Shown: positions 12,688 through 59,158 of the stretch, piece by piece
How positions within the stretch are numbered: position 1 is the first letter of the stretch
Layout: each line of letters begins with the position of its first letter
Virus record (IMG/VR): IMGVR_UViG_3300048833_000100
Coordinates: 9,896-73,895 of that record
Reading direction: 5' to 3' (one strand)
Length of the DNA: 64,000 nt
From: a virus
The notes under the pieces: generated by a model
Databases searched by the model: none
Told to the model about the DNA's origin: nothing
Seen by the model: the letters and a program-made list of their open reading frames with translations, nothing else
Translations under genes and position numbers: made by a program

Positions 12688-12733
12688 ATTAGACACTGAA
12701 TTGGTCGGCGTCTATGGTGTGGTGTGGTGTGAT

Positions 12734-14803
12734 TTACATATCCTGCAACAGCTTCTCAGCCTTACGAACCCGTCGCTTCTGATCGGCCGTTAGTGGGCCG
12801 GACTTGGAGTTCATCTTCTCCAGGAACGCCTCCAGCCGCCGCACAGCCGCAGCCTTGGCAATCGGGTGTTCCGTTTCCCCAGAGATGAAGTCGGCGGCAT
12901 AGGCCAGTTCCGTGGGGTCCTCGAGCGCATCCGGGTCATCAGCCCCAAGGAGAGAAACCATATCCTCGGCAGCCGTGCCCTCCGGTTGGGTGGCCTTGAT
13001 CTGCTCGGAGATCTGGTTCACCGCAGCGGCTTTTTGCTGATCCACCACTGCGCTAGGATTGGGCATGGGTGCCGCTGCCCGGTCCAGAGCAGAGGTGCCA
13101 TTCACAAACCCGTTCTGGACGAGGGTCGAGCCTGCATTACGCATGGACCGCCCTGCCCCCATCAGAGTAGCACCGGCCTCAGGAGAGACCACGGAGACCG
13201 GGTATCCCAGTGCCGTGAGGCCCGCACCTGCGCCCCAAGCAGCTCCGCCTGTAAGGCGCCCCACATTCCGGTCAAGGACACGGGCCTGTCCCGTGGAGAC
13301 GGCATTGGCAAAGTCCCCCACACCGGCCTGCACTGCTTGCGCCTGTTCCAGATCATTGGTGGGTGCTGGAGGTGTATCCGGGGTTTCACCGCTGGCTGTC
13401 GGATCTCCTTGGGCACCTTCCGCCTTCGCTGCCGCTTCGGCTAGGGCAGCCTCAGCGGGGGTGCGACCAGTAGGCTGGTCACCTTTGGGAGAACCTTGAA
13501 GGGCAGAGTCCACGATGGTTTGAGCCGCTGCCGCCTTTTCTTCTGGAGGCATGTTCGCGTAGCCGGACAGCTCCAGGATCTCATCAATGGTCTTCTGGAT
13601 GGCTTCCGGGGAGGATCTCCGATAGATCTGAGCCCGAAGGGTATTGTCGAGCTTGGTCAGCTCGGCCCGCTCGTTCTTGATCCGGGTATCCTCCCGCTTG
13701 TATTCGTTGATCTTGTCGTCCAGACGCATGTTGTCGTCCGGCATATCCAGCCCACCAAGGATCTTCCTGATTTCAGCCACAGCCGGGATCTGCCCATCGT
13801 TGTTGAAATTGAGGAAGTCGATCCCGGTATTGGTCAGGGTATCCTGGATGACCGCAGCAATGATCTTCGGGTTGACCCCTTTGAACTCGCTTGTCAGATC
13901 GTTGTAGAGACCACGCAGTTCCCCCCGGCTCCGGGAAAACTTGCCCTCCTCATCCGAAGTCTCATCCGCCCCGAGCTCGGAGATCACAGTCTGCAGGGGA
14001 TCCGCAGACTGCCCAAACCGGGACTCCCCGAGCTCGTAATAATAGAGCTCCTTGTTGAGACCCCGTTCCCGTGCCAAAGCACGCTCCTGATTGTCGAGGG
14101 TCTCTGTCTTTGAGAGGATGATGCTCTCGATATCTTGGGGAGCTGCCTTCACCTGTTCATGGTCTGAGAGCGTGACATCCCCCACTGCCCAGTTCTTCGG
14201 GTCGACCGAACCAATGGCCTTCAGGAGGGCTTCCTCTTCCTTGGGGGCAAACTTGTTCTGGATGATCCACTCCGATGCAAGTTCAGGGGTGATGAGGTCA
14301 GGGTCATCGGCCAACTTGTTGGCCTGCTCAAAGGCCCATTCCGCCCGCTGCCGATCTTCCTCGCTCCGGGCATAGACCTCGTCTGCCCGACCCTCACCAA
14401 TCTTCTGCCGCCCGAAGTCATGTTCATTCTTGCCGAGATTGAACCGAGCCTGAGCATCCGAGGTGTCATTGGCCCGGCTGGTCTCCAGAGAGGAGCGATA
14501 CCCATAGGCCTTGTCCAGAGCCCCGGCAGTCGCCTCTCCGGGAGCGATCCCGAGAGCACCCAGACCTTGGGTTGCCAGGGCCTGGTCCAGCGTGCCAACC
14601 CCGCGGTGCCGCAGAAGGTTGTCGGCAACCTTGGCGTCGATGAGCAGATCGGCCTTGGCCTTCTTCTCCTCACCTGCCTCGCCGAAGACATCCCCGAGAC
14701 CTTCCATGGCCTTGGCAAAGCCATCGCTTGCCTTGGCCTTGAGATAGGCAGCACTTTGGAAGTCGGGGCCGGAGACCTGTTGCCAGGTGATACGATTAGC
14801 CAT
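12734..14803 (-). CDS. Virion/ejection protein (N4 gp51-like)
   Basis: N-terminal RITWQQVSGPDF resembles the N4 gp51 family; synteny immediately upstream of vRNAP. Confidence 0.75.
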   Translation of the reverse strand: MANRITWQQVSGPDFQSAAYLKAKASDGFAKAMEGLGDVFGEAGEEKKAKADLLIDAKVADNLLRHRGVGTLDQALATQGLGALGIAPGEATAGALDKAYGYRSSLETSRANDTSDAQARFNLGKNEHDFGRQKIGEGRADEVYARSEEDRQRAEWAFEQANKLADDPDLITPELASEWIIQNKFAPKEEEALLKAIGSVDPKNWAVGDVTLSDHEQVKAAPQDIESIILSKTETLDNQERALARERGLNKELYYYELGESRFGQSADPLQTVISELGADETSDEEGKFSRSRGELRGLYNDLTSEFKGVNPKIIAAVIQDTLTNTGIDFLNFNNDGQIPAVAEIRKILGGLDMPDDNMRLDDKINEYKREDTRIKNERAELTKLDNTLRAQIYRRSSPEAIQKTIDEILELSGYANMPPEEKAAAAQTIVDSALQGSPKGDQPTGRTPAEAALAEAAAKAEGAQGDPTASGETPDTPPAPTNDLEQAQAVQAGVGDFANAVSTGQARVLDRNVGRLTGGAAWGAGAGLTALGYPVSVVSPEAGATLMGAGRSMRNAGSTLVQNGFVNGTSALDRAAAPMPNPSAVVDQQKAAAVNQISEQIKATQPEGTAAEDMVSLLGADDPDALEDPTELAYAADFISGETEHPIAKAAAVRRLEAFLEKMNSKSGPLTADQKRRVRKAEKLLQDM

Positions 14804-14811
14804 GGTTCACC

Positions 14812-15378
14812 TCAGATCTTGTTTTTTTCGACATAGCGGTTGGCCCAGCCTCTGCCGCGACCTTCCTGCGATGCCCGACCGTCCGCCCGTTCCTGCAGAG
14901 CCGTGTTGTAGCTTGCAATCTGGTTGGCGTAGTTGTCGGCATAGGTCTGCTTCTGGAAGTCGAACATCTCATTTGCCAGCTTGTTCTGCTGGACCGCGCC
15001 CCAGATCGAGCCAATGGTTCCGATCCCCTTGGAGATCATCTCGAGCCCGTCGAGGTTGAAACCCTTCTCCTTATCCCAGAGCAGGCCCTTAAACCCATCC
15101 CACAGGGACAGATCTTTGGCTGTGGCGTCATCTGCTGCCGGAGCCACAGGCGCCGGAACCGCAGCTGCACTGGTCGTCGGCGCCGTCGGAGCGGCACCGG
15201 GAGCCTGATACTGGAAGGGGGTGATCTGGTAGCCAGCCGGTGCAGCATTGGGGGCTGCCACACCGAGCGGTGCGGGGGCGGTGGAGGTCCAGGAGCGCAG
15301 CTGGTCGGAGGTAGGCATCCCGGTAAAGCCCAAGGGCGACGGGGCCTGAGATGTGGGATAGGTATACGGGTAGGTCAT
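14812..15378 (-). CDS. Virion structural/ejection protein (N4 gp52-like)
   Basis: C-terminal FDFQKQTYADNYANQIASYNTALQERADGR; synteny. Confidence 0.75.
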   Translation of the reverse strand: MTYPYTYPTSQAPSPLGFTGMPTSDQLRSWTSTAPAPLGVAAPNAAPAGYQITPFQYQAPGAAPTAPTTSAAAVPAPVAPAADDATAKDLSLWDGFKGLLWDKEKGFNLDGLEMISKGIGTIGSIWGAVQQNKLANEMFDFQKQTYADNYANQIASYNTALQERADGRASQEGRGRGWANRYVEKNKI

Positions 15379-15406
15379 GGGCAAGACTCCACTGAATTGT
15401 TCGGGA

Positions 15407-17695
15407 TCAGGTCAAGCCGGGAAGTTCGAGCGAGATTGCAACGAAGTCCGTCACCATGGCTCTGGACAGTTCCGCGAGCTCACTGCCCGTCAGGAGGGTC
15501 CGACCCAGAAAACTTGCGCTGCGTTCCCCGAATTGTTCGGTGGCATCTGAAAACATCATAGGGTCAACGACGACATTCGTCATGCCCAGATTTTCATTCC
15601 AGAGCTTCTCCAGCTCCTTGGTCTTTTCGGCATAGTCCTCACCGAGGTTCTGCATGTCCTGCATGATGTCTGCCGTATCGGCAGCGATCCAACGACTATA
15701 GGCATCCCCCACAGCATCGGTGAGTTTGGTCAGGTTCTCAGGACGGAACAGCACGTTCCAATCCACGTTGAAGCTGCCGGTGGTCACCAGGGACTTCCCG
15801 ACCTGCAGGGCCACCATGGAGACAATGGTTCCCAGGATGGCTCCCCACTTCTCGCCCAGAACCAATACCGAGATCTTGGAGAGGATCGTGGTCAGGATCA
15901 CGGAGGCGATCCCATTGGCCACAGCTCCAACCATGGCGGCTGTTGCGGCCGAGGCCCCGAGAGCCGCTCCTACAGCTGCGTTGGTTCCGAGGATCCCACT
16001 GACCGTCGCAAGCCCTGCCCCGGCAGAGATGACCGAGATGGCGATCGAGACTGCGAACATCACGATCTTGAAGAAGCCCCTCTGATACCACTTCTGCTTC
16101 ACCTGCTTGTAGCTGTTGATGACCAGATAGGTGGAGACCCCGGCCAGCTCTGCACCTTTCAGAGCTCCGACCTTCCGCAGAGTCGGGTAGTGCAGCGGGA
16201 TCAGGAAGCCGGACTCATCCTCTTCCTCAAGCACATCCTCAGCATAGATCCTCACGCTCTTATCACCGTAGACGAAGTTCTGGTGCATGAGCCCGGTCAC
16301 TACGATCTTGCTGTAACGCCGCTTGGAGTGCTGTCGAAGGATGGCAAACCGGGACCAGGTCTGCTTCACATGCTGGAGGTAGTCATAATAATCCATGCCC
16401 AGATCCCATGCGGTCACCGGAGCCATGGGAACGATCAGGTATTCCCCGAGCTTCAGCAGGGGCCGGGTTTGGTTCGCATCGAAACGGGCAGCATTGCCGA
16501 CGTGTTGCGTCTCCTCGATCCCTGTCCAGGAGATGATGAAATCGAACTGCGGCAGACCCGGCATCCGAATATGGATCTCGTTTCGATCAGGCACGTCGTT
16601 GAAGACGGCCTCCAGCGCAGGGGCGATCTTGTTCCAGCTTGGGTTGGTCGGCGAACCATCCCCATCATTGGCCCGCTTCCAGCGCCGCCAGGCTGCACTG
16701 GTCACCCGCTTGTTCCGGGCATCTGCCACGAAGTCATCGAGGGTCGTGTTGGAGACCTGAAGATTAATCAGGCTCCTGAAGAACTCATAGAGGTAGGTCT
16801 GCGACGGGGTGTCGGCTGCGTTGAGCGTGACCGCGGGAAGCAGGAACATATGGTCCATGTCCCCGAGTTGCTCGTGATCCTCGAGCTGTGGGATCAGCTT
16901 CGAGAGCCTTGCCCCGGTCAGCTTCCAATAGGCCTCTTCGGCTGCATCCTGCAGGGAGCCACCGATCTCAGTGACGAACTGGTTCTCGATCCTGATCGGG
17001 ATGGCTGGGAAGAACTCCGCCAGATCCGAGGCCACTGGGCGCAGGGCATCGAAGGTCGCGTTGCCAGAGCCCATGCGGTAGGTGAAGAGCTGTGTGTCTC
17101 CGGCGATCCACTGCCTGCGGGCATTTCGGGTCAGGACCTGATAGCTCACATAGAGGAGCTTTCGGTTGTCCCGGTAACTGCCCCAGAGGAGATCCGCCGC
17201 AGCGGGCACCGTATAGGTGGTCGCGCCTCGAGTGATCTCCATCCGGGCTGTGGCCATGTTCAGCTCGGCTGTCCATTCCTCCTCATCCCAGGTTGGGTGG
17301 TTCCTGGAGACCCAGTGCTCGGCCCAGTAATCGACATCGGCGTCATCCACCCGTGCCGAACCAATGATGATCTTCTGGTTCTCTCCCAGACCGAGGACTG
17401 TCCGCATGGCGGCCGTGAGGCCCTTGCCACGAACAGAGATCGCGGCCCCAATGGTTCCCGTCGGCATGCCCAGATCGTAACCCGTCCGAGCCCAGCGGAA
17501 GAACATCTGGTTCCGCATGGCCGTCGAGCTGCGGAGGAAGTTCTGGAGATGGTCTCCCAGACCCTTGGAGCTGTTCGAGAGGTTCGATGACAGGACGAGC
17601 GAAGGCAGCAGCTTGGGACGATTTTTCGGCTCCCCGGCCATATTCCAGACCGCGGAGCTGACATAGGTTTTCGTCTTGCTGCTGAACAGGCCCAT
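15407..17695 (-). CDS. Structural protein (N4 gp53-like)
   Basis: MGLFSSKTKTYVSSAVWNMAG start; KQKWYQRGFFK followed by TM segments; synteny. Confidence 0.85.
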   Translation of the reverse strand: MGLFSSKTKTYVSSAVWNMAGEPKNRPKLLPSLVLSSNLSNSSKGLGDHLQNFLRSSTAMRNQMFFRWARTGYDLGMPTGTIGAAISVRGKGLTAAMRTVLGLGENQKIIIGSARVDDADVDYWAEHWVSRNHPTWDEEEWTAELNMATARMEITRGATTYTVPAAADLLWGSYRDNRKLLYVSYQVLTRNARRQWIAGDTQLFTYRMGSGNATFDALRPVASDLAEFFPAIPIRIENQFVTEIGGSLQDAAEEAYWKLTGARLSKLIPQLEDHEQLGDMDHMFLLPAVTLNAADTPSQTYLYEFFRSLINLQVSNTTLDDFVADARNKRVTSAAWRRWKRANDGDGSPTNPSWNKIAPALEAVFNDVPDRNEIHIRMPGLPQFDFIISWTGIEETQHVGNAARFDANQTRPLLKLGEYLIVPMAPVTAWDLGMDYYDYLQHVKQTWSRFAILRQHSKRRYSKIVVTGLMHQNFVYGDKSVRIYAEDVLEEEDESGFLIPLHYPTLRKVGALKGAELAGVSTYLVINSYKQVKQKWYQRGFFKIVMFAVSIAISVISAGAGLATVSGILGTNAAVGAALGASAATAAMVGAVANGIASVILTTILSKISVLVLGEKWGAILGTIVSMVALQVGKSLVTTGSFNVDWNVLFRPENLTKLTDAVGDAYSRWIAADTADIMQDMQNLGEDYAEKTKELEKLWNENLGMTNVVVDPMMFSDATEQFGERSASFLGRTLLTGSELAELSRAMVTDFVAISLELPGLT

Positions 17696-18795
17696 CAGTT
17701 CAACTGAAGGCGGGTGCGGATGCGGTTGACCACCGTGGTGATCTCCGGGTTGTCCAGGCCGCCAGGGGTGGCCACACCCTCGTTCATCGTCTTGCTGGTG
17801 GTCCAGGCGTTCATCATCACCTGCAGAACCTTGGTCTCGGCATCCCGCTTGTAGGAAGCGATCTGCTCGTCATAGAGCTCCATCTGCTTGCCGACCGAGC
17901 CAGTCACCGTGGCACCACCGCGGCGGGTGTTCAGGGTCTTCGAGCGATGACCTTCGGTCTGCTCTTTCAGGTTCTCGAGCTGCTCCGGCAGCAGGAACTG
18001 GTTGTTGTATTCCTTGCCTACCGTGTCGGCCGTGAAGCCTGCCACCTGTGCCGGGTAGAAGTCGGAGAGTTGATACCCAAGGATGGCCACTTCGCCGTCC
18101 AGCTTCTGCTTCTGGGCCGGGTCGATATTGGCCAGCTGATAGAGGATTTGGTCACGTTGAGCGGTCTTCACATCCGTCCCACGCTGCAGGTCGATCAGCT
18201 GGGCGGGCAGCAGGTAGGTGACCTCGTAGGCCGCCTTCTCGACCTGACGCTTGGCGAGGTTCCAGTTGGCATCCTCGGTCGCCAGACGCAGCTTGGTCAG
18301 CGAGTATTCAGCACCCGCCGTCTTGGCCTGGAACTGGGCAATGGCGAGACGGGCCTTGGATTCCTCGGCCTGGATGCGGGCCTGGACCAGAGCCACGGCT
18401 GCAGCATCGGCCTGACGCTGGGCTGCGACTGCCTGCCAGCGAGCGGTGTCCCTGGAGAGGAGATACTGGACTGCCGAACCAAGAGCAGCGGAGGTGAGTT
18501 GGATATAGGCCTCGGCATATTGGGCGCCGGTCAGGCGGCCCTTCTCGAACTCGACCTTGACGTGCTCCGAGATGGAAACCATCAGAGCATCAAACATTCC
18601 CGAGCCGCCAACTCTGCGGGAGGTGAGATCTCCCTCAGTCAGGGAGGGGACATCGACGATCGAGCTGTCAGGGATCTGGAACTCGGGGTCGTTGAAATCG
18701 ACCGCAGGGAGGGTGAGATCCTGATCCGCTGTCAGGAGGGTATAGAGCTCCCCGGCAAGGGCGCCGGCTTCGGTAGAGGTAGGTGTCGTCGGCAT
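17695..18795 (-). CDS. Structural protein (N4 gp54-like)
   Basis: GGSGMFDALM...EFEKGRLTGAQYAEAY and GSVGKQMELYDEQIASYKRDAE motifs. Confidence 0.85.
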   Translation of the reverse strand: MPTTPTSTEAGALAGELYTLLTADQDLTLPAVDFNDPEFQIPDSSIVDVPSLTEGDLTSRRVGGSGMFDALMVSISEHVKVEFEKGRLTGAQYAEAYIQLTSAALGSAVQYLLSRDTARWQAVAAQRQADAAAVALVQARIQAEESKARLAIAQFQAKTAGAEYSLTKLRLATEDANWNLAKRQVEKAAYEVTYLLPAQLIDLQRGTDVKTAQRDQILYQLANIDPAQKQKLDGEVAILGYQLSDFYPAQVAGFTADTVGKEYNNQFLLPEQLENLKEQTEGHRSKTLNTRRGGATVTGSVGKQMELYDEQIASYKRDAETKVLQVMMNAWTTSKTMNEGVATPGGLDNPEITTVVNRIRTRLQLN

Positions 18796-18824
18796 GGGAT
18801 TTCCTTGTCGGAGAGCTCAGTGGT

Positions 18825-19445
18825 TCAGGCGCCGCGGGTCTTCAGGGCATAGCCCTCGAGTTCCCAGATCCTGTTGAAGGCGTTGTCGAAGGCCACTTTG
18901 CGGCCCATCTCTTCGTTGAAGTTGGTCGGATCAATCACGTTGGAATAGCCGACTACCTGCGAACCATTGGTCAGTCGCAGCACACAGACGGTCAGGGTGC
19001 CGTCGGGCAGATAGGTCTCGCTTTCCACCAGAGCCTTGAGGTGCTCCGGGGTCAGCCGGGTAGGCCCCTTCTCCACCGGCAGCACGTTCAGAGCCGTGCG
19101 AACCGCTGTGGTGAAGAGGGCATCCTTGATCCGCTGTTCGGGCGGCAGCTGGTTGTAGGGAACCATGCAGGGATGCTGCTTGAGGTCCGGGTCCTTGACC
19201 GGGCCATAGACCCACCCATCCGCTTCCTTGAAGGCCAGCCAGCCCTCATGGCTCTGCTCGGGCGTATGGTTCGGATTGGCTGCCAGAGCCTCGACACCAG
19301 CGATGGCCGAGTTCTTCTGCCAGTCCGGTGCCTCATCCCAGGGCAGGTGACTGTAATCGCCGATCCCCCGGCAATAGGCCCGGTTGATCTCATGGGCCAG
19401 AACGGCGGCTGCCAGGATGAACTTGCGTGCGATGGGACCGCTCAT
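18825..19445 (-). CDS. RyR-domain protein fused to an N4 gp49/Sf6 gp66-family domain
   Basis: SHEGWLAFKEADGWVYGPVKD...HPCMVPYNQLP (RyR repeat) plus LTVCVLRLTNG..VVGYS...NFNEEMGRKVAFDNAFNRIWELEGY. Confidence 0.75.
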   Translation of the reverse strand: MSGPIARKFILAAAVLAHEINRAYCRGIGDYSHLPWDEAPDWQKNSAIAGVEALAANPNHTPEQSHEGWLAFKEADGWVYGPVKDPDLKQHPCMVPYNQLPPEQRIKDALFTTAVRTALNVLPVEKGPTRLTPEHLKALVESETYLPDGTLTVCVLRLTNGSQVVGYSNVIDPTNFNEEMGRKVAFDNAFNRIWELEGYALKTRGA

Positions 19446-20089: not shown

Positions 20090-20124
20090 TTGGCGTTCCT
20101 TCGAGGTGTGGTTTGGTGTGGTGT

Positions 20125-20152
20125 GAATAGGCCGGGGGATCCCGGCCTATTC
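20125..20152 (-). terminator. Hairpin after major capsid gene
   Basis: gaataggccggg-ggat-cccggcctattc perfect 12-bp stem. Confidence 0.6.
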
Positions 20153-20165
20153 CTCAGTCCCTGGA

Positions 20166-23159: not shown

Positions 23160-23220
23160 TTTTTGCTCCTGGGGTGGTTCGGTGTGGTGTGGTGTGGCAA
23201 TCTTATGTGGTTTTTGCGCA

Positions 23221-27115: not shown

Positions 27116-27169
27116 ATCATGTCTCCAATGGTTCGGCTGGATTAAACCACATCATACCACACCACACCA

Positions 27170-27763: not shown

Positions 27764-27866
27764 GGCGCACTCCAGAAAGGGTTGGGGGGAGCCGGAGCGT
27801 TCAGCGCACAGAGGTGGTGAGGTCTTCCTATTCCCAGCATAGGCGAGTTTCCCGCATCACACCAGA

Positions 27867-28499
27867 TCACATCAAAGCAAGCGCATCGAGAGCCGTCTGC
27901 AGATGAGACTGTGCATCCTCGGTATCGGCAGCCGCCACGATCAGCTGGATGGTGCTCTGCCGGATCTTCTCGATCGCGGCCGCCACGGGGCGCCAGAGAG
28001 CCGCCATGTTGATCCATAGCTGCGCCAGCTCATAGGCCGTTGGCGCCGTGATCCCGACCTCCTCCACCAGGAATGGATAATCGGTCAGGGTTTCCGGCAG
28101 ACTTGCCAGATAGCTGATCGCCTCAGCTTCCTTGGCCATGTAGATCATGTCCTGGCCGGGCAGCACTGTGATATATTTGCCACGAACCATCGCCACAGCC
28201 GAGTTCAGCTGGGCAACCGCCTGAGCCTTTGCCTCCGGCAGGCTCAGGCTGGGCAACAGCACAGAGGTTGTCAGCACGTCGACGGGTCCAAAGATCCCAT
28301 CCACCATCCCATAGATCACACCGTCCTCGAGCAGCCCTACCGGGACCGGCAGCTGCTCGAGATCTTTCGGGATGGACCCATCCTGTTGAAACCAGAGCAT
28401 CCCCTCCGGGATCAGCTCAGGCAGCAGGGAGCTGTCATTGGCTCCCATGCTCTGGATCTCGCCTGTGGGAGAAAGAGTGACATATTTCACATTCGGCAT
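27867..28499 (-). CDS. Tail fibre-associated/chaperone-like protein
   Basis: RGKYITVLPGQDMIYMAKEAEA...YPFLVEEVGITAPT; directly downstream of tail fibre. Confidence 0.65.
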   Translation of the reverse strand: MPNVKYVTLSPTGEIQSMGANDSSLLPELIPEGMLWFQQDGSIPKDLEQLPVPVGLLEDGVIYGMVDGIFGPVDVLTTSVLLPSLSLPEAKAQAVAQLNSAVAMVRGKYITVLPGQDMIYMAKEAEAISYLASLPETLTDYPFLVEEVGITAPTAYELAQLWINMAALWRPVAAAIEKIRQSTIQLIVAAADTEDAQSHLQTALDALALM

Positions 28500-32504: not shown

Positions 32505-32551
32505 GGTTCAGCAATCCCTTCGATAAACCACACCACACCACACCGGGCGGG

Positions 32552-34851: not shown

Positions 34852-34906
34852 CTTGGGCTCCTTCTGGTTGCCCGGATATTTGCACACCACACCACACCAA
34901 AGCAAG

Positions 34907-35608: not shown

Positions 35609-35710
35609 CTCTTCTTCTCTTCCAGAGGGGAGTATATCTCATAGATAGAAGATGACTCTTTAGGGTGTCAATAGGATAAACCATACCACACCATACCAGT
35701 AGATAGATCT

Positions 35711-36704: not shown

Positions 36705-36870
36705 CAAGAGGACACCTAACCTAAACCCTACCGTCGCTGACACCGATCAGGATAGAGACCACACACCTCACCACACTCCATCAGCTCGTCATCCAGTGCC
36801 CATGTCCATCTTCCGGGTCACTCGACACCGGACAGAGGCTCATGCCTCTGTATGGCTCTCCTATGCGCCA

Positions 36871-37914: not shown

Positions 37915-37959
37915 ACATCGCCAGTCACACCACACCACACCAAACCATGGAGACTACCC

Positions 37960-42254: not shown

Positions 42255-42310
42255 GTTCTACCGAACCACAGCACAGCACACCAACTGCAGAACATACCAG
42301 GAGATACCCA

Positions 42311-44088: not shown

Positions 44089-44127
44089 TAATCATACCAC
44101 ATCACACCACACCGAGAGGATTGAGCC

Positions 44128-50460: not shown

Positions 50461-50625
50461 TGGTCACCCCTTGAAGATGGAGGAGGTCGTCGACCTCCCA
50501 GTCAAATTATATCACTTTACACCAAACCACACCAAACCGAAATCCGTGGATCCCCCTGAACCATCTGGACAGGGGATCTGGTCCGTGGGTAAATCACACC
50601 ACACCAAACCGTCAGGACTTGAGCC

Positions 50626-50853
50626 ATGAAGGACACTGTCTCTGAAGCCCCGGTCACCCCGAGCCGGGGACACAACTCCCCCTACGATCGCGGCCGGGCC
50701 GACAGCTACTACAGCCGTCCTCCTGAACCCAACAAGCGCACAGGCCATCTGGGCGTCAATCGGATCACCGATCTGACCCCGGAGGAAACCCAGGAATACT
50801 ACGCCGGGTATGACTGGAATGAGCAATACGGCGAGAAAAAAGACTGGAGATAA
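50626..50853 (+). CDS. Hypothetical protein
   Basis: HNSPYDRGRADSYYSRP...YYAGYDWNEQYGEKKDW. Confidence 0.75.
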   Translation: MKDTVSEAPVTPSRGHNSPYDRGRADSYYSRPPEPNKRTGHLGVNRITDLTPEETQEYYAGYDWNEQYGEKKDWR

Positions 50854-50857
50854 CACC

Positions 50858-51777: not shown

Positions 51778-51868
51778 ACCACCCCACCCGCGCATCCCAA
51801 CAGCACCACGATCGCCCTTGCGGTCGTGGTTTTTTGGGTTTGTGCCCTGATCAGATTTGGAGACTTCC

Positions 51869-52918
51869 ATGACCATGTTTACCATGACCCCGAAAGAGGT
51901 CAGGGCCGCCATCCTCGAGTGCTTCGAGGCCCGACTGGTGCCCTTCATCCAGTCGAGCCCCGGCATCGGCAAGAGCGCCATTGTGGCCTCGATCGCCAAG
52001 GAGTTCGATCTCGAGCTCATCGACCTTCGCCTGAGCCAGTGCGCCCCGGAAGACCTCATGGGTCTGCCCATGCGCTTGGGCGAGGGCACCGAGATGAAGG
52101 CTGCCTTTGCCCCCTTTGCCATGTTCCCCGTCGTCGGGGACAAGCTACCCAAGGGCAAGAACGGCTGGCTGCTCTTCCTCGACGAGTTCAACTCGGGAAC
52201 CAAGATGGTTCAGGCAGCTGCCTACAAGCTGGTGCTCGATCGCATGGTTGGCCAGTTCCGGCTGCATGACGATGTCTATGTCGTGGCGGCTGGTAACCTG
52301 GCCTCTGACCGCGCCATCGTGAACAGCCTCTCGACCGCCATGCAATCCCGCCTGGTTCACATCGAGATGGAGCTGCATCACGGTGAGTTCATGGACTTCG
52401 CCACGGCCGCACAATGGGATCCTCGCATCCTGGCCTTCTTGGAGTTCCAGCCGGGCAAGTTGCACAACTTCAAGCCCGACCACACCGATCGGACCTTTGC
52501 CTGCCCGCGGACCTGGGACTTCGTCAACCGGCTCATCAACGGCAAGCCCAAGATGAACAAGCCGCTGCTGGCGGGTGTCATTGGAGAAGGTGTAGCTGTC
52601 GAGTTCTGCACCTATGCTGAGATCTTCGCACAGCTGCCGAGCTACACCGTCATCTGCTCGGACCCCGACAACACTCCGATTCCGCGGGATCCGGGACCGC
52701 TCTATGCGACCATCACCATGATGGGCGACAAGTTCTCGCGGGCGACCTTCAAGGACGCAGCCAAATATGCAGACCGTCTGCCGCCCGAGTTCCAGGTGCT
52801 CTACCTGAAATCGGTAAAACGGCGGGAGCCCTCCTTCGTCCGGGACCAGGAGTTCGTCCGGCGCAGCAAGCGTCTGGTGACCTTCATGGCTGAAGATGAC
52901 ATGGCGATGGTCGCATGA
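51869..52918 (+). CDS. MoxR-like AAA ATPase (N4 gp24-like)
   Basis: SSPGIGKS, LLFLDEFN and FACPRTW motifs. Confidence 0.92.
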   Translation: MTMFTMTPKEVRAAILECFEARLVPFIQSSPGIGKSAIVASIAKEFDLELIDLRLSQCAPEDLMGLPMRLGEGTEMKAAFAPFAMFPVVGDKLPKGKNGWLLFLDEFNSGTKMVQAAAYKLVLDRMVGQFRLHDDVYVVAAGNLASDRAIVNSLSTAMQSRLVHIEMELHHGEFMDFATAAQWDPRILAFLEFQPGKLHNFKPDHTDRTFACPRTWDFVNRLINGKPKMNKPLLAGVIGEGVAVEFCTYAEIFAQLPSYTVICSDPDNTPIPRDPGPLYATITMMGDKFSRATFKDAAKYADRLPPEFQVLYLKSVKRREPSFVRDQEFVRRSKRLVTFMAEDDMAMVA

Positions 52919-53112
52919 CGAGCACACCCCAACCCACCACAGACCGGGTGAAGTTCGTCTGCCCGGTCTGCAAGTCTGACCGGATCCTACGGGATGCCTA
53001 TGCGTCGTGGAACCAGGACACCCAGGAATGGGAGCTCCACGATGTCTACGACTACACCACCTGCCAGGACTGTGATGCTGGCAGCAATCATCGGGACGAG
53101 ATCCCGATCTGA
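52915..53112 (+). CDS. Small Zn-ribbon protein
   Basis: CPVC...DAYASWN...CQDC. Confidence 0.7.
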   Translation: MTSTPQPTTDRVKFVCPVCKSDRILRDAYASWNQDTQEWELHDVYDYTTCQDCDAGSNHRDEIPI

Positions 53113-53394
53113 ACGAGATCCTTCCCCGATCAGGGGGAGGGGAGTCGGAAGGACCTCAACAGGGCTTCATACCTTCCGGCTCCACAGGTCCCGTCCCAGG
53201 GTGCTGACTTACCTGGGATGGGCTTGGTCGGCGGCATGCCCCCATGCCGTCGGCGTGGCTGTGTCAGCAGCTGCCAGGAGATGACCGCCTATCAAGCGGT
53301 GGCGTATGACAGGGAATGAAGGGATTAGCCCCACTGGCTCCAAGAGCTATCGCCCAGCCGAACATCAGGATGTGTCCTGAGCATCTCCTACCCC
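53113..53394 (+). ncRNA. Putative structured non-coding RNA
   Basis: Six or more contiguous hairpins with G-U pairs on the + strand; no convincing ORF. Confidence 0.4.
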
Positions 53395-53488
53395 GAGGGT
53401 GTGGCGGAATTGGTAGACGCGGCGCTTATAGGGGCTCCAGAACCCGAACGTGCCGGAATTGTGGGTTCGACTCCCACCACCCTCACCT
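53395..53488 (+). tRNA. tRNA-like element (Leu-type D/T arms, non-canonical anticodon arm)
   Basis: Acceptor GAGGGTG/CACCCTC; D arm GCG-GAATTGGTAGA-CGC; T arm GTGGG-TTCGACT-CCCAC; ends A-CCT; anticodon not assignable. Confidence 0.65.
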
Positions 53489-53541
53489 ACCACGCAGTTC
53501 CCGGTCTGCGTCATCAAAACCGGGACCCCATTCCCTGAACC

Positions 53542-54714
53542 ATGGAGCTCCCCATGCGAGACCTGTCTCAGGTCGTCGTGCCCGATCAGGCCACGCTCGA
53601 CACCCTGCTGTCCAAAGCCAAGCTCCAGTTCTTCGCAGCCAAGCGCAAGGGCGTCGGCTTCCTTGGCTCCCTGCTGTGTGATCACACATATATCTGGGAC
53701 GACTCCCCGAATTGTCCCACCGCCTGGTGCGATGGCAAGACCATCTGCTTCAACCCGCGGTTCTTTGTGAGCCTGGCTCAGGAGCAGCGTGTGACCCTCC
53801 TGGTCCATGAGCTCTGGCACACCGGCTATGACCACATGGACCGGATCGGCAACCGAGATCCCGAGACCTGGAACGAGGCTGCCGACTACGTCATCAACAA
53901 CCTGATGGACACCTGGGGCTACAACTTCACAGGCATGGACCCCCTGCTCGACCATCAATATGACAACATGACCACTGAACAGGTCTATGAGATCCTGATC
54001 AAGCAGCCCCGCAATCCCAACCGGGCGACAGACCCAAGTCCCCTTGGGAATGATGTCCGCCCATCCCCGTCCCGCGCTGACCAACAAGCCATCAAGGAGA
54101 AGATCGTCAAAGCTGCCCAGGCCTCGAAGATGGCCAAGGAAGCCGGGATCATCCCTGGCGAGACCAAGCAGCTGATCGAGGAGTTTCTCAACCCGATCCT
54201 GCCGTGGGAGATCCTGCTGGAGCGGTTCTACACCGAGCTCTCGAAGGACGACTACAGCTGGAAACGTCCCTCCCGGCGCTACGAGGATGAATACCTCCCG
54301 AGCCTCGATGGCGACAACAAGCTGGATCACCTGATCTACTACATCGACGTGTCGGGCTCGATCACCAATGCCCAGATGCTGCGGTTCCTCTCCGAGGTGA
54401 AACACATCCACACGAACCACACACCGAAGAAGATCACGGTGGTTGGTTTCGATACTCAGGTCCAGTTCGTCCACGAGTTCGAGGAGGGCGATCCCTTCGA
54501 GAAGATCGAGATCAAAGGACGGGGCGGCACCAATCTGAAGCCGGTCTACACCCATATCCGCAAGCACATGCCCACCGCGGCAGTCGTGTTCTCGGATCTG
54601 GAATGTCGGCCGATGTCGAAAGACCCCGGTGCCCCGATCCTCTGGGTCATCATGGACAATCCCTCGCCGGATGGACTGGCTCCCTTCGGCCAGCGCATCC
54701 ACATCAAGGCCTGA
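53542..54714 (+). CDS. Metallopeptidase plus VWA domain protein (N4 gp25-like)
   Basis: TAWCDG, HELWH, WNEAADYVIN, IDVSGSI and GRGGTN motifs. Confidence 0.92.
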   Translation: MELPMRDLSQVVVPDQATLDTLLSKAKLQFFAAKRKGVGFLGSLLCDHTYIWDDSPNCPTAWCDGKTICFNPRFFVSLAQEQRVTLLVHELWHTGYDHMDRIGNRDPETWNEAADYVINNLMDTWGYNFTGMDPLLDHQYDNMTTEQVYEILIKQPRNPNRATDPSPLGNDVRPSPSRADQQAIKEKIVKAAQASKMAKEAGIIPGETKQLIEEFLNPILPWEILLERFYTELSKDDYSWKRPSRRYEDEYLPSLDGDNKLDHLIYYIDVSGSITNAQMLRFLSEVKHIHTNHTPKKITVVGFDTQVQFVHEFEEGDPFEKIEIKGRGGTNLKPVYTHIRKHMPTAAVVFSDLECRPMSKDPGAPILWVIMDNPSPDGLAPFGQRIHIKA

Positions 54715-54717
54715 ACC

Positions 54718-54864
54718 ATGAGCTGCCTTGCAGACACAGGTTGGGAGCTCTTCCTCGAAGGGCTCCAGACCGCCAATCCCAAGAAGATGCAACTGGGCAT
54801 GCGAACCATGGCCCGACAGATCAAGGAGCAGCCTCGTGCAGTTCAAGAACCGCAAGGAGTATGA
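54718..54864 (+). CDS. Small hypothetical protein (48 aa)
   Basis: Read manually after TGAACC-ATG. Confidence 0.35.
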   Translation: MSCLADTGWELFLEGLQTANPKKMQLGMRTMARQIKEQPRAVQEPQGV

Positions 54865-55354
54865 GCCCACGCACATCAAGACCCTGGTCGAGATGTTGGA
54901 TGGGGACAAGGAAAAGGCCGCTTCCCTGATGGGCTGCCACTATGCCACCGTCGTCACCGCCATTCGGGAAGATGTGGCTACCCGTCGTCAGGAAATATCG
55001 GCACACAAGGCCATCATCCGCCTTGAGACCGAAGAGTCGATCAGGCGGCGGCAAGAGGCTGAGGCTGCCCAAGCCAAGCTCAACGAACTGCTACTACCAC
55101 CGCTGCCACAGCCACCCGTCCTGCCGCTGCTGGAGCCTCAGCAATCTGGGCACTATGACAGAAACCCGCCACTTCGTCGGCCGATCTTCATGAGGCCGGT
55201 CGAGGAAGCCCAGGTCGTTGAGGATGTCCCGGAACTGGGGCCGAGCCTTCCCCCAGACCACATGGTTCAGGTCCTGGTCTCGATCCCGGCCAACAAACTC
55301 CAGTCCTTCCACCGGGTCACAGCCCTCATGGGCGCCGAGGTGGCAGAACTCTGA
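54837..55354 (+). CDS. Putative HTH DNA-binding protein
   Basis: SD aaggag with GTG; DKEKAASLMGCHYATVVTAI HTH-like segment. Confidence 0.6.
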
Positions 55355-55429
55355 ATCCCTGACGATCCCTGTCAGGCTCCCGCAGTCGGAGGGTAACCCG
55401 GCATCAACCCCTTGCATGAAAGGAAGCAC

Positions 55430-55768
55430 ATGCTTCGCAAGACCCTGATGCTGGCCCTGTTGGGACCGGCCCTTCTCGTCATGGCTGCCTGCGCCCCTGG
55501 CCCCAATGCCGTGGCTCCCATCCCGATGCCAGTCAACACCTACATGGACATGAACTGTGTCCAGGCGAAGGCCGAGCACACCCGTGTGACCAATGAGGTC
55601 GCGGCCTTGTCCAAGAAGCAGAAGAACGCTGCCGTGGGCGATGCCATCGGCGTCTTCCTGATTGCGGTGCCCGTGTCCTCCCTGACCGGCAATGACGTGC
55701 AGGGAGATCTGGCTGTGTCCAAGGGCAAGCTGCTCGCAGCTGAAGCCCGCCTGAACTCCTGCCGCTGA
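55430..55768 (+). CDS. Lipoprotein
   Basis: Signal peptide with lipobox MAAC; YMDMNC...DAIGVFLIAVPVSSL...SKGK. Confidence 0.75.
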   Translation: MLRKTLMLALLGPALLVMAACAPGPNAVAPIPMPVNTYMDMNCVQAKAEHTRVTNEVAALSKKQKNAAVGDAIGVFLIAVPVSSLTGNDVQGDLAVSKGKLLAAEARLNSCR

Positions 55769-55834
55769 TCCAACCCTCAGCCGCCCCCGCTTGGCCTGCC
55801 GGCCTGCGGGGGCTTTCTGTCTCGGGATAGTCAG

Positions 55835-56014
55835 ATGAAGATCACCGAAGAATATTTCACCACAGCCGTCGGCCGAGAGCCTGTGATCGACGATCTGGCC
55901 CGCTGCAACTGCCCCAAGGCAGGAGAGCTTGGCCATTTCCAATGCGGCTGGAACCACCAGAAAAACCTGCCGGTCTTCATGGCTGGCCCGGAAAAGAAAG
56001 AACCCACCACATGA
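55835..56014 (+). CDS. Small Cys-rich phage protein (59 aa)
   Basis: Read manually: AVGREPVIDDLARCNCPKAGELGHFQCGW; ATGA overlap with dcd. Confidence 0.6.
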   Translation: MKITEEYFTTAVGREPVIDDLARCNCPKAGELGHFQCGWNHQKNLPVFMAGPEKKEPTT

Positions 56015-56595
56015 TCGTCAATGGCGCATCCCTGCTTGCAGCAGCCCCGATCAAGGACATGCTCACCACCAAGGAGCGGGCTCATGGTGTGAGCTACGGT
56101 CTGGCCGAGGCGGGCTATGACATCCGCATCAAGCAGGACATCACGTTCATTCCAGCGGGACATTACCAATACATCCCGGAGCAGGATCCAAACGTCCCCT
56201 ACGTCAGAATGACCCGGAAGCTGATAGGGTGGGATACCGTCTTCTCCTATGACCCCAGCCTTGGTCCTGTGCCCACTGAAGGGACTTCTGGCCGCTTCAC
56301 CATCGCTTCCGCAATCGAAGAGTTCCAGATGCCCCATGATCTCGTGGGCGTCGTTCACGACAAGAGCACCTGGGCACGGCGCGGTCTCTCGGTCTTCAAC
56401 ACCGTGATCGAGCCGGGCTGGAAGGGCTTCTTGACCCTTGAGCTGATCTACCACGGCAACGAGCCTCTGCATATCAAGGCGGGCTCCGGCATCGCACAGA
56501 TCCTGTTCTCACGCGTCGAGAACCCCGCCGCCTATGATGGCAAATACCAGAACCAGGCCGATCGGCCGGTGGCTGCCATCTACGAGAAGGGGTGA
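56011..56595 (+). CDS. dcd: dCTP deaminase (N4 gp26-like)
   Basis: SYGLAEAGYDIR, DKSTWARRG, NTVIEPGWKGFLTLE and YDGKYQNQ motifs. Confidence 0.93.
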   Translation: MIVNGASLLAAAPIKDMLTTKERAHGVSYGLAEAGYDIRIKQDITFIPAGHYQYIPEQDPNVPYVRMTRKLIGWDTVFSYDPSLGPVPTEGTSGRFTIASAIEEFQMPHDLVGVVHDKSTWARRGLSVFNTVIEPGWKGFLTLELIYHGNEPLHIKAGSGIAQILFSRVENPAAYDGKYQNQADRPVAAIYEKG

Positions 56596-56668
56596 GCCAA
56601 AGCCCAGCGGGCGGTGGCTCAAAACACCCGCAGCAGGGGGGATTTGTAGTCTGGATCCTGACCCTGCC

Positions 56669-57202
56669 TCACTCCCCGTCTTCATAGACCGCTGGCAAGT
56701 CGGGCAACATGCCCGGCAGGCTCGGTTGCGAGACGGGGGGTAACCCATCCCCAGAGGGCAGCTGTTGCTCGCCCTGAAGCATCTTCGGCACCTGCCGGAG
56801 CTTCTGCTCGACTTCGGGCAATGGCCTGGGCTGATCCGATCCTGCCAGTAGGATCGTGCCTCTGACCGTGGCATAGCGTAGACCGTCCCGGTTCTTGCGC
56901 CAGGCCACATGGCTGTTGATCGCATAGACATTGACCGTGCCGGAGCTGCCCACCTGCAGCACCTGAACCCAGTTGCCTTCCCGCAGAGTCTCCATGGCTC
57001 GGCGGATCGAGATCTTGCTCACTCCCATCAGCTCGGCCAGGGCATTGTGGGAAGCTGCAACATAATTATCCTTATCAGCCAGAACCACGAGCTGGTGCAT
57101 GAGGGCCGCTGCCATGGGCTTCTCCAGGGTCAGCTGCTTCCATGCCTCATGGGTAGACAGATCGGTCTGAACGAAACCCTGCAAGGGCGCCGGTGTCTTC
57201 AT
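56669..57202 (-). CDS. rep: Plasmid replication initiator, pBBR1 Rep/RepL family
   Basis: FVQT..STHEAW..L..EKP.AAALMHQLV, winged helix, GTVNVYAINSHVAW...RD.LR and GEQQLPSG...SQP.LPGM.PDLPA co-linear with pBBR1 Rep as recalled. Confidence 0.88.
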   Translation of the reverse strand: MKTPAPLQGFVQTDLSTHEAWKQLTLEKPMAAALMHQLVVLADKDNYVAASHNALAELMGVSKISIRRAMETLREGNWVQVLQVGSSGTVNVYAINSHVAWRKNRDGLRYATVRGTILLAGSDQPRPLPEVEQKLRQVPKMLQGEQQLPSGDGLPPVSQPSLPGMLPDLPAVYEDGE

Positions 57203-57560
57203 AGGTTCTCCAGATGAGCAGGGGTGTGTTCATCTCAGCCACGAATCGTATCTGGCAGCATGTCTTCCCGTATCTGACTGGTCAATCCACGACTCAGACC
57301 GTGCTCATCTGAATGAGCAGGGGGGTGCTCATCTAGGTGAGCAGACCCCCCTGCCCAAGCCCTTGATTCACAAGGCTCGAAATCTTGCCCTCTCTTATGA
57401 TCTACAGGACAGGGGACGGGTCGTGTCGTGTCGGGCGAAGCGGCTCCCCACAAAGCAAGCGCCGACCGATGCGATGCGGCCCAGCCCCTGCCTGTCTTGC
57501 GAAAACTTATCCACAGATCACAGCTCTGCCTCTGTTCTCCTTTCCAGGAGTCAAGGGAAA
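57203..57560. promoter_or_regulatory. Putative plasmid origin of replication (Rep-binding inverted repeats plus DnaA box)
   Basis: AGATGAGCA-N6-TGTTCATCT (57212-35), TGCTCAT-ctga-ATGAGCA (57302-19), TGCTCAT-ctag-GTGAGCA (57326-43), TTATCCACA (57507-15). Confidence 0.75.
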
Positions 57561-57613
57561 AGCCATAATGAAAGGAGGAGCATGGCATCCACTATCCGAA
57601 CCATAGAGGCACT

Positions 57614-57886
57614 ATGAGACCCTTTGAGAACAGCCGCTTGCTCCCAGAAGATGATCCAGACGAGATCTACTCCGCCCATGCTTCAGACAACTATCCCCGC
57701 ATCTCGCAGATCACTGTCGAGGTCTTGTTGGTGGGAATGTCCGAGCACATGCTTCGGATCAAGGCGGATGAAGATAGCCCTGCCCGGTGGGTCCACCGGC
57801 AGGGCATCAAGATCCTCTCCATGTCAGACCCGACAGCCACCCTCTCCATGACCGAAGCCAAGGCTATCGACTTGGGTCTGGTCTGA
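57614..57886 (+). CDS. Hypothetical protein
   Basis: SD gagg; WVHRQGI...LSMTEAKAIDLGLV. Confidence 0.65.
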   Translation: MRPFENSRLLPEDDPDEIYSAHASDNYPRISQITVEVLLVGMSEHMLRIKADEDSPARWVHRQGIKILSMSDPTATLSMTEAKAIDLGLV

Positions 57887-57890
57887 TGTT

Positions 57891-57910
57891 ACACCACACC
57901 AAACCACACC
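57891..57910 (+). repeat. (ACACC)x4 site downstream of par operon
   Basis: acacc acacc aaacc acacc. Confidence 0.75.
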
Positions 57911-57988
57911 GAATGTTCAGGCGGTGAGGTTGGAATGGGGTGGCCCGGAAGTTCTCGCGTTCCTTCGGGCCGGGCCACCCCAGGCGGG

Positions 57989-58336
57989 CTACTTGCGCGG
58001 GTGCTGCTCCCGCTCTCGCAGGTAGCTCGCCATCATCGCCTCGAGCATCTCGCCGTTGGTCAGCCGGGTGGCAATGCACAGCCTGCGGAAGCTCTCGTAG
58101 ACAGGTTCCTTCATGCGAAGAGACATCTGCACTGTCGGTTCCTTCTCCCGCCGTTCCCGACGGCTCCAGCTCTCCTGCTCCAGCTTCTCTTCTGCCTTGG
58201 CCGAGACCTTCTCCAGGACCTCGGGCGGCAGGAGATCGAGGCCGGGCTTCACGGGCTCGGAAACCATCCGCCGTGCCTTCTCTGCCTCAGCTGCCACGGC
58301 CGAGACAACATCCACAAACTCCATCTTATGCGCCAT
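57989..58336 (-). CDS. Partition adaptor, ribbon-helix-helix ParB/ParG-like
   Basis: Flexible N-terminus, C-terminal TVQMSLRM-KEPVYESFRRLC-TNGEMLEAMM RHH; overlaps parA stop. Confidence 0.75.
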   Translation of the reverse strand: MAHKMEFVDVVSAVAAEAEKARRMVSEPVKPGLDLLPPEVLEKVSAKAEEKLEQESWSRRERREKEPTVQMSLRMKEPVYESFRRLCIATRLTNGEMLEAMMASYLREREQHPRK

Positions 58337-59039
58337 GGTTCACCTCCTTCGCGCCCGGACGACTCCAACCCCGGATGTCGTCAATCCACCCCATCACACC
58401 CTTCAGCTCCTCGACGAAGAGCTCGGCATTGCCAATTGCCTTGGGAACCCCGGAGACCTCGTTCACGTCGAGATCGTAGAGGGAGCCGCCGTAGGCGCTC
58501 AGTGCCGCAAAGGCAGTCCGTTCAGAGAGCTCGGTGGTGAAAGCCCCGATCTTGTCGCGGATCTGGGTGTTCACCGACCGTTGCAGTCTCGACTTCACCG
58601 CGGCCTTGGTCCGGGTGAAGAGGATGCGGACGGGGATCTCCCGGTTCCGCTGCATGGCTTCCCGCTTCAATTGAACCAGGGTGTCCACGGCCTGCTTGGC
58701 TTCCTCGTGCTCGTCCCCCATGGGGATGATGACGAGATCGCTCTCCGACATGGCGATAGCCGTCAGGCTCCGCCCTGCCCCTTGGGTGTCGATAATCACA
58801 TAGTCCGAGGCAGCCTTGGCCCGGTCCAGCTCGCCGATGAAGCTCCGCTCACCCTTGGAGGCGATGACCTTCAGACGTGCATGGACCGGCGCCCGCTCGG
58901 ACCAGCTCACGAGGCTCTGGTTCGGGTCGGTGTCGATCATCGTCACCCGATGATGGCGCATCAGGATGGTGCCAAGGATGATCGCAGACGTGGTCTTTCC
59001 TACGCCGCCTTTCGACGACGCGAAGCAGATGACAGGCAT
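58326..59039 (-). CDS. parA: Type Ib ParA partition ATPase
   Basis: SSKGGVGKTT deviant Walker A, IDTDPNQSL, VIIDTQG and SDLVIIP; no N-terminal HTH. Confidence 0.92.
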   Translation of the reverse strand: MPVICFASSKGGVGKTTSAIILGTILMRHHRVTMIDTDPNQSLVSWSERAPVHARLKVIASKGERSFIGELDRAKAASDYVIIDTQGAGRSLTAIAMSESDLVIIPMGDEHEEAKQAVDTLVQLKREAMQRNREIPVRILFTRTKAAVKSRLQRSVNTQIRDKIGAFTTELSERTAFAALSAYGGSLYDLDVNEVSGVPKAIGNAELFVEELKGVMGWIDDIRGWSRPGAKEVNHGA

Positions 59040-59105
59040 CGGCAGTTCTCCAGTTTTCCCAAGACTGAGGCTGCTCCCGAATCTGGGACCTGTCCAGAGA
59101 AAAAT

Positions 59106-59158
59106 ACACCACACCGAACCAAATCACCATTTTTTCGCCCAAAACCCCACACCACACC
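59106..59158 (+). repeat. Two ACACC arrays in the divergent parA/helicase promoter region
   Basis: acacc acacc gaacc aaatc, then acccc acacc acacc. Confidence 0.75.

Follow-up and report, generated by a model that had tools for sequence, protein, structure and literature searches.

Dispersed ACACC repeat arrays of an N4-like phage clade as predicted binding sites of a type Ib ribbon-helix-helix partition adaptor

Introduction

In plasmid pSM19035, the ribbon-helix-helix (RHH) protein ParB requires at least four contiguous repeats to activate ParA (PMC9499535), and in TP228 the degenerate short boxes of parH/OF, located upstream of parA, serve autoregulation as well as partition (PMC3130281). 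This work deals with a 64,000-nucleotide stretch of viral DNA (the window; bases 9896–73895 of the single 73,895-bp virus record IMGVR_UViG_3300048833_000100; 60% G+C) that carries a parA gene, an overlapping adaptor gene and dispersed tandem arrays of the 5-bp unit ACACC. From sequence comparison we propose that the phage's own type Ib RHH adaptor recognises these (ACACC)3-5 arrays as its cognate sites on double-stranded DNA, a prediction to which we assign a probability of about 60%.

The genome is that of an N4-like podophage, with a virion RNA polymerase (vRNAP) of 3,693 residues, both subunits of RNA polymerase II (RNAP II), an N4-type single-stranded DNA-binding protein, the portal, the major head protein and the terminase. 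N4-like phages (Schitoviridae) are textbook virulent phages and are regarded as strictly lytic. A precedent for scattered sites with a double function is the IncP-1 plasmid RK2 (KorB/IncC), which has 12 OB operators over the replicon and in which KorB is both partition protein and global repressor. Throughout the text, w followed by a number is a position in the window, G000 is the genome analysed here, and other G and L numbers denote genomes and loci of relatives.

The arrays and their placement

Allowing at most two mismatches, ACACCACACCACACC has 28 overlapping matches in the window, against a mean of 0.19 and a maximum of 3 in dinucleotide-preserving shuffles. When a weight matrix of the unit was applied to 20-nt windows, 17 sites scored above the null maximum of 20.1, which is the best score among 20 Markov-shuffled genomes; the array at w42263 barely clears it with 20.9. 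Merging in-phase matches across the whole 73.9-kb genome yields 19 arrays of three to five units (11 with four units, four with five and four with three), 16 of them inside the window and the other three at genome positions 370, 4342 and 8421. The unit consensus is A-[C>A>T]-A-[C>T]-C, and ACACC accounts for 58% of the units. A reversed-pattern control is invalid for this motif, since (ACACC)n read backwards is the same repeat in another phase. All 15 arrays listed in a previous sequence-only reading of the window were recovered with their coordinates and strands; its two degenerate copies near 27854 and 36756 are also present, and weak, the first (w27859) scoring 17.6, under the null maximum, and the second (w36763) having three units, as does another of the weaker arrays, at w59144.

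By gene calls, 9.2% of the genome is non-coding, and every one of the 19 arrays falls in this fraction, none of them inside a gene of this phage, which together with the excess over the shuffled sequences bears out the enrichment in intergenic DNA that had been suggested. The spacing is fairly even, with approximately one array per 4 kb. In the late minus-strand block, each gap of at least 45 nt carries an array, be it only a degenerate one, and little else than a Shine-Dalgarno (SD) sequence accompanies it. The motif reads as ACACC on the plus strand in 16 arrays and on the minus strand in three; the arrays at w27144, w32525 and w34884 are antisense to the adjoining genes. With regard to the neighbouring genes, the earlier assignments stand for vRNAP, gp55, gp58, gp67, RNAP2, helicase and parA, while the product called endolysin is only weakly GH19-like, below the Pfam cut-off.

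The partition operon and its array

ParA carries the sequence SSKGGVGKTT at residues 8–17 and matches the Pfam families VirC1, AAA_31 and CbiA. The adaptor gene lies directly downstream and overlaps parA by 11 nt, and this order is kept in G002, G006, G007 and G016 as well as in the IMG/VR and metagenome par loci examined. The start of parA had been placed at w59114; it was corrected to w59039 from homologues that begin MPVI(T/C)FASSKGG, and therefore the arrays at w59106–25 and w59144–58 are intergenic, so that the location of an array upstream of parA holds. Just before the corrected start (w59040–59105), the sequence gggaaaac(n)ggag is conserved in G000, G002, G006, G007 and several IMG/VR loci, far above the rest of the gap.

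The adaptor has zero matches in Pfam or PHROG. Its homologues share the C-terminal block xTVQMSxRMxxxxYxxFRxLCxxxRRTNGEM, and an AlphaFold2 model of the monomer (predicted local distance difference test, pLDDT, 68) has an extended segment at residues 66–76 followed by helices at 77–90 and 94–111. A Foldseek search with this model returned mostly RHH proteins (CopG, Arc, PutA, ParD, ParG and McdB), with target template modelling (TM) scores of up to 0.89 and E-values of at least 0.4, which are weak because the RHH domain is short; in a profile search against solved structures the best match was McdB, with E = 0.0014. The model therefore favours the RHH identity previously put forward for the 57989–58336 product, and with this topology in 115 residues the adaptor is not a helix-turn-helix (HTH) protein of the ParB, SopB or KorB kind. 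The residues of the strand predicted to face DNA, Q70, S72 and R74, are invariant in every member of the clade found. As far as the sequence can tell, a ParA, an overlapping RHH adaptor and a repeat array are arranged here as in type Ib partition systems.

The array upstream of parA keeps its place across relatives. When the 250 nt ahead of parA were scored in 14 distinct N4-like par loci, the top 20-mer was an array in 13 of them, with its far end at −79 to −108, which puts these arrays about 60–110 nt upstream of the gene. Among all windows of the same locus, such an array falls in the highest-scoring 5e-5 to 4.5e-4. Several par loci show, in the parA sense, a (T/G)(T/G)GACA hexamer approximately 5–10 nt after the array. 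The array itself is mostly antisense to parA and hence sense to the divergent gene on the helicase side. Another array position related to this operon is the convergent gap just past the adaptor gene, where both G000 and G002 (15534) carry an array that has no gene downstream.

Arrays and par in the relatives

Relatives were collected with gp57, terminase, ParA and helicase as probes; a search of IMG/VR with the single ParA protein gave zero matches, and the ParA loci there came from an alignment-based search. The arrays are restricted to loci with a terminase identity to this phage of about 67% or more; approximately 60 terminase-anchored loci with no more than 66% lack them. Within the clade, each of the five near-complete genomes (G000, G002, G006, G007 and G016) has ParA, the adaptor and dispersed arrays, with 8–19 sites at a matrix score of at least 17. 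On the other side, eight complete N4-like genomes outside the clade (G004, G005, G011–G015 and G017:C39) have no ParA of this family and either no array or one chance match; thus, arrays in par-less lytic relatives, the finding named beforehand as refuting the tie to par, were sought in these genomes and are absent. Every IMG/VR ParA at least 52% identical to that of this phage lies on an N4-like contig, between the helicase and dcd genes. The tie between the arrays and the par operon with its RHH adaptor, originally suggested from the window, is supported by this comparison of five genomes with par and eight without it, and by the fixed place upstream of parA. The genome G001, which has arrays and no ParA match, was considered as a counter-example and discarded; as an 81% fragment that breaks off 4.8 kb beyond dcd, it decides nothing about arrays without ParA. 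Two of the N4-like genomes, G016:C1 (74,951 bp, with par and arrays) and G017:C39 (86,904 bp, with neither, and longer than the usual N4-like genome), were binned in metagenome-assembled genomes named Luteolibacter and Gemmobacter, respectively, and this binning may be spurious.

The same comparison bears on the simplest view of the arrays, that they are functionless microsatellite-like expansions in slack DNA. A simple repeat with a variable number of units is what such expansions would look like. Nevertheless, matching gaps retain their arrays between genomes that share only 40–60% protein identity and span 46–63% GC, some copies within genes are in frame and use ACA and CCA codons in high-GC genomes, and sister lineages have no arrays, all of which makes this explanation highly improbable.

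Beyond the clade, more distant relatives of this ParA keep the operon, and both the strand of the adaptor and the repeats upstream of parA differ. In the N4-like clade the strand is xVQMSxRM (Q-S-R at the DNA-facing positions) and the arrays upstream of parA are of ACACC. A strand GQFT(V/I)RA (Q-T-R) is accompanied by ACATC(A) repeats in L188 and pMARC5, GQISIKA (Q-S-K) by CATGGCA or TAGGCA in L200–L202, QQINIKT (Q-N-K) by GGTAC in L192 and L193, and GQVHAKV (Q-H-K) by CCGGTAA in L195–L197.

The closest named relative found is plasmid pMARC5 from Paracoccus marcusii (NC_019367.1), whose ParA is 45% identical. Its adaptor strand is SQFTIRA (Q-T-R), and ACATCACATC lies between the TTGACA and TATATT hexamers of the parA promoter. 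The par locus of pMARC5 is like that of the phage in its ParA, its downstream adaptor and the ACAYC repeat at parA, and differs in that the repeat is single instead of dispersed: tandem ACAYC-ACAYC occurs once in 36 kb, in the parA promoter. It follows that the genome-wide spread is a development of the phage clade itself, and, given that pMARC5 has no phage genes, that an ACAYC repeat as a par operator would be independent of the phage transcription system.

DNA site, RNA leader or promoter element

The orientation of the arrays differs among relatives at three matching sites. In the portal/gp58 gap, an array is present in G001, G002, G003, G007 and L001, and a weaker one in G006; it is sense in G000, G001, G003 and G007, and antisense in G002. 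The array after the gene for a 233-residue protein is antisense in G000 and sense in G002, and the orientation of the array in the parA/helicase gap of G000 is reversed in G016 and L211. In addition, G001, G002, G003, G006, G007 and G016 contain in-frame arrays inside coding linkers of vRNAP or gp57. Those in vRNAP are located at G002 37623, G016 29591, G001 45192, G006 41839 and G007 16992; those in gp57, at G001 34229, G003 11399 and G006 30170 and in L002–L004, where they fall in an acidic N-terminus and read (D/E)HTTPxQ, with ACA and CCA codons in high-GC genomes. The orientation flips, the copies in convergent gaps and the in-frame linker copies fit a site in double-stranded DNA better than an RNA leader or a promoter. 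The arrays within the 11-kb vRNAP gene, which is the longest stretch without gaps, suggest that selection acts on density along the genome and not on promoter position.

A different function can be imagined at the level of RNA, in which the arrays would be unstructured 5' leaders devoid of G, ahead of the SD sequence, serving as a ribosome standby site, a translation enhancer or the site of an RNA-binding protein, and their association with par would be a coincidence. This proposal draws on the fact that, of 47 arrays with an unambiguous orientation in six genomes, 39 read in the same sense as the adjoining genes, that most arrays end 11–30 nt before a start codon with the SD sequence in between, and that they precede early, middle and late genes, so no single promoter class is involved. 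It does not account for the eight antisense arrays, which are as well preserved as the sense ones, nor for the three sites that flip, nor for the convergent-gap arrays (w57891 and G002 15534) without a downstream gene, and it explains neither the restriction to the par clade nor the fixed parA array in either orientation. We consider an RNA role distinctly unlikely.

A role as promoter or initiation element, read by a phage transcription factor that has nothing to do with par and counts parA among its targets, is also unlikely; such a factor could be the heterodimeric RNAP II acting with its single-strand-binding partner, or a further DNA-binding protein specific to the clade. Several arrays come directly after a terminator-like hairpin, with no room for a separate promoter before the SD sequence (genome 4342, w20105 and w44094; G003 13734), which together with the sense-strand bias would suit such an element, and the clade has two other specific small genes, for a RuvC-like protein of 168 residues and for a protein of 167 residues without an assigned function. 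However, the units are degenerate and variable in number, which is unlike the promoters of single-subunit polymerases, as known from those of the T7 kind. Arrays are found ahead of early, middle and late genes, and there are antisense, convergent-gap and intragenic copies. Upstream of vRNAP, a AATAATggcggg element and a GC hairpin are conserved (w12685–12714; around 21290 in G003), and the position of the array relative to this element differs: in G000 it lies before the −35 hexamer, and in G003 approximately 45 nt after AATAAT. Finally, pMARC5 lacks a phage polymerase and yet has the ACAYC repeats in its parA promoter together with a Q-T-R adaptor.

Other roles in DNA have been contemplated: a site for a host nucleoid protein or response regulator that recognises a 10-bp direct repeat, a priming or recombination signal, or a non-B structure such as a two-tetrad G-quadruplex in the GGTGT strand. 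The 5-bp units do give a 10-bp direct-repeat period, (GGTGT)4 contains four GG runs, and the spread along the genome is fairly even. Against this, host-factor sites would not track par across the hosts of phages with 46–63% GC, and the group as a whole appears quite improbable. A replication polarity signal of the Chi or KOPS kind was specifically considered and rejected; the strand pattern has no switch at the Rep/ori region and fits no single point of divergence.

Several observations weigh against the adaptor-site proposal itself. No known RHH repeat is as short as the 5-bp unit (omega has 7 bp, and ParG 4-bp boxes with 4-bp spacers), and one dimer per 5-bp unit is sterically unlikely, therefore a 10-bp register must be assumed. 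Par and arrays occur together within a single clade, and one evolutionary event may lie behind this pattern. Within the clade there is no covariation of strand residues and repeat unit, both being invariant at 46–63% GC, and the ACATC-rich L208–210 are still Q-S-R. The array upstream of parA is equally near to the divergent helicase-side gene; its usual orientation, sense to that gene, could by itself make it an element of the helicase, although it is flipped in G016 and L211. A pure double-stranded DNA site does not predict the sense bias. On sense strands in general ACACC outnumbers GGTGT by a factor of 1.6–2, which explains the 39:8 ratio only in part; intragenic arrays are necessarily sense because the reverse would encode runs of Gly, Val, Trp and Cys, and this leaves the intergenic part not fully explained. 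Our guess is that the bias comes from a secondary constraint on the mRNA, by which a leader free of G is preferred to one with GGUGU beside the SD sequence. The distance to the start codon given above is likewise one that a leader element would have. Regarding the operator role, promoter-like hexamers adjoin the arrays at w12716, portal/gp58 and parA, and in L004 and G003; scans for sigma-70-like promoters at the arrays gave chance levels (6 versus 4.1 and 3 versus 5.3), so the operator role is a candidate one.

A model for the adaptor and its meaning

According to the adaptor-site proposal, dimers would bind the arrays cooperatively, probably with one dimer for every two 5-bp units. At the parA promoter, binding of the adaptor would lead to autoregulation and, together with ParA, to the formation of a partition complex. 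The remaining arrays, approximately 17, would turn the whole phage genome into a multi-site substrate of the adaptor, with a distributed centromere as the likely outcome, and those that overlap a promoter or a transcript start could act as operators or roadblocks that damp phage genes during plasmid carriage. The dual role of the adaptor in segregation and silencing, already suggested when the arrays were noticed, is a candidate and a reasonable extension of the prediction.

A broader picture can be drawn, which we offer tentatively and consider rather doubtful: the whole N4-like clade would persist as low-copy plasmids by means of Rep, ParA and the RHH protein, without a CI-type repressor, and the adaptor would coat about 20 arrays (approximately 4 kb apart, some of them in frame in vRNAP or gp57), segregate the genome, keep the middle and late operons silent and perhaps also block the genomes of superinfecting phages.

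For an N4-like clade to conserve a plasmid partition operon would be unusual, all the more if the sites of its adaptor have spread to about 20 places. If the proposal is true, it would represent a new route of phage carriage, in which one RHH protein provides segregation and gene control in place of a repressor and an integrase; it would also give a direct handle on RHH partition complexes that act on many short arrays as opposed to one long array. If only the par-proximal arrays are bound, the others would be an unexplained clade-specific element of phage gene organisation.

The phage and its plasmid-like module

In gp57, identity to the closest cultured phages is about 42%, and a megablast search of GenBank phages with 24.5 kb of the phage DNA gave zero nucleotide matches. 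Among plasmids, the ParAs most similar to that of the phage belong to Rhodobacterales and other Alphaproteobacteria. Beside par, relatives encode a Rep_3 plasmid initiator (WH1+WH2; G002 L071:14414–15304, with matching genes in G006 and G007); the same place in this phage (w56669–57202) is occupied by a different winged-helix protein of 177 residues, with weak matches only to replication initiators. The presence of Rep-type genes next to par, along with the similarity to alphaproteobacterial plasmid ParAs, makes plasmid carriage of the phage plausible on comparative grounds. A limited literature search retrieved no publication on par genes in Schitoviridae or on their carriage as plasmids.

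A deletion variant of this module is also found. Contigs of two wastewater runs join w58126 to w59154, and L215, a 1,174-bp contig from activated sludge that is 96–99% identical to the window, has this junction and a second deletion (w56678–57845). Its deletions remove the Rep-like gene, the origin-like region, the gene for a 90-residue protein, parA and adaptor codons 1–70 (w58127–59153). The contig retains the w57891 array unchanged, and an intact 45-codon frame that starts exactly at Met71 of the RHH domain, a retention that may be due to chance. L215 therefore reveals that a close relative without the rep/par module exists in nature.

Between gp58 and the major head protein gene, w21634–22827 encodes a protein of 397 residues with a long acidic low-complexity N-terminus that matches phrog_2120 (tail length tape measure protein), a name that looks doubtful for a podophage. 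At w48360–50460, a leftward cassette of three genes lies within the rightward middle region; one of its products matches the virion structural protein phrog_3758, and the divergent gap that heads it contains two arrays. Lastly, a 2022 run (X9), filed under one organism name, contains pieces 85–99% like w44000–63999, and its longest record (72,618 nt) is near the size of this phage genome; its source may be a host that carries a relative, or a phage preparation.

Table 1. Repeat arrays and par genes of the window. Positions are those of the window; scores are those of the unit weight matrix.
Feature	Position	Strand	Context
Array AAATC ACACC ACACC ACACC	12716..12735	-	Upstream of vRNAP, sense; abuts promoter-like TAGACG-18-AATAAT; score 31.5
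Array between major head protein gene and gp55	20105..20124	-	Sense; right after GC-rich hairpin; score 34.3
Array between portal and gp58	23171..23195	-	Sense; just downstream of TTGACG-18-TAAGAT
Array, five units, 54-bp gap upstream of GH19-like gene	27144..27168	+	Antisense to flanking genes; score 30.0
Degenerate array ACACC AGATC ACATC AAAGC, 103-bp gap	27859..27878	+	Weak; score 17.6, under null maximum
Array, 47-bp terminase/gp67 gap	32525..32544	+	Antisense to both genes; score 34.3
Array, 55-bp gap after gene for 233-residue protein	34884..34903	+	Antisense; counterpart in G002 sense
Array, divergent gap between late and early blocks	35678..35697	+	Score 28.7
Degenerate three-unit array, early region	36763..36777	+	Mismatch scan
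Array about 20 nt downstream of GC hairpin (cacggcc...ggccgtg)	37927..37946	+	13 nt before ATG; score 34.3
Weak array GAACC ACAGC ACAGC ACACC	42263..42282	+	Upstream of RNAP2; score 20.9
Array after hairpin	44094..44113	+	14 nt upstream of gene for 130-residue protein; mismatch scan and matrix
First of two arrays, divergent gap w50461-50625	50519..50538	+	Score 33.0
Second array, divergent gap w50461-50625	50591..50610	+	15 nt before ATG at w50626; score 30.2
Array, convergent gap	57891..57910	+	78 nt past adaptor stop; no downstream gene in the sense of the array; layout common to G002; score 34.3
Adaptor, 115 residues	57989..58336	-	Flexible N-terminal part, then predicted RHH domain (strand TVQMSLRM; helices 77-90 and 94-111)
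ParA, 237 residues	58326..59039	-	Small Walker-type ATPase (KGGVGKT), without N-terminal DNA-binding domain
Array upstream of parA	59106..59125	+	67 nt upstream of parA ATG; in the parA sense, TGGACA (-35-like hexamer) 10 nt later
Second array of parA/helicase divergent gap, three units	59144..59158	+	62 nt before helicase ATG (w59221)

Comparison with known partition systems

The delta/omega and parS system of pSM19035 resembles that of the phage in having a small Walker-type ParA with an RHH adaptor, and contiguous arrays of a short non-palindromic repeat, several per replicon. Its parS sites are functional in either orientation, overlap promoters and serve as centromere and operator, and the likeness to the phage is one of the mode of working; no significant sequence match was found between the adaptor and omega. 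The commonest array size in the phage genome, four units (11/19), equals the working minimum in pSM19035. The two systems differ in the unit, 7 bp (WATCACW) with six parS sites at three promoters in pSM19035 as compared with the 5-bp ACACC at about 19 sites over 74 kb in the phage, and in their setting, since pSM19035 is an inc18 plasmid and here we deal with an N4-like phage of the virulent type in which binding is predicted from sequence.

The ParF/ParG system of TP228 is likewise of type Ib, with an RHH adaptor that has a flexible N-terminal tail, and ParG is among the Foldseek matches of the phage adaptor. In contrast with the contiguous and dispersed 5-mers of the phage, ParG has 4-bp boxes with 4-bp AT-rich spacers at one locus. 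KorB of RK2 is an HTH ParB that acts on a 13-bp palindrome, whereas in the phage an RHH protein would act on direct repeats, and therefore the likeness is in the working and not in the family. N15, which is kept as a plasmid, is similar to the phage in that several centromere sites are scattered through phage genes; however, these are four palindromic sites for the HTH protein SopB (type Ia), while the phage pairs direct-repeat arrays, about 19 in number, with an RHH adaptor (type Ib), and its plasmid state is only proposed. What is new in the present case is the 5-bp unit, its dispersal to about 19 sites, in relatives also within coding DNA, and the setting in an N4-like phage; if the proposal is true, this would be, to our knowledge, the densest dispersal of type Ib centromere/operator repeats.

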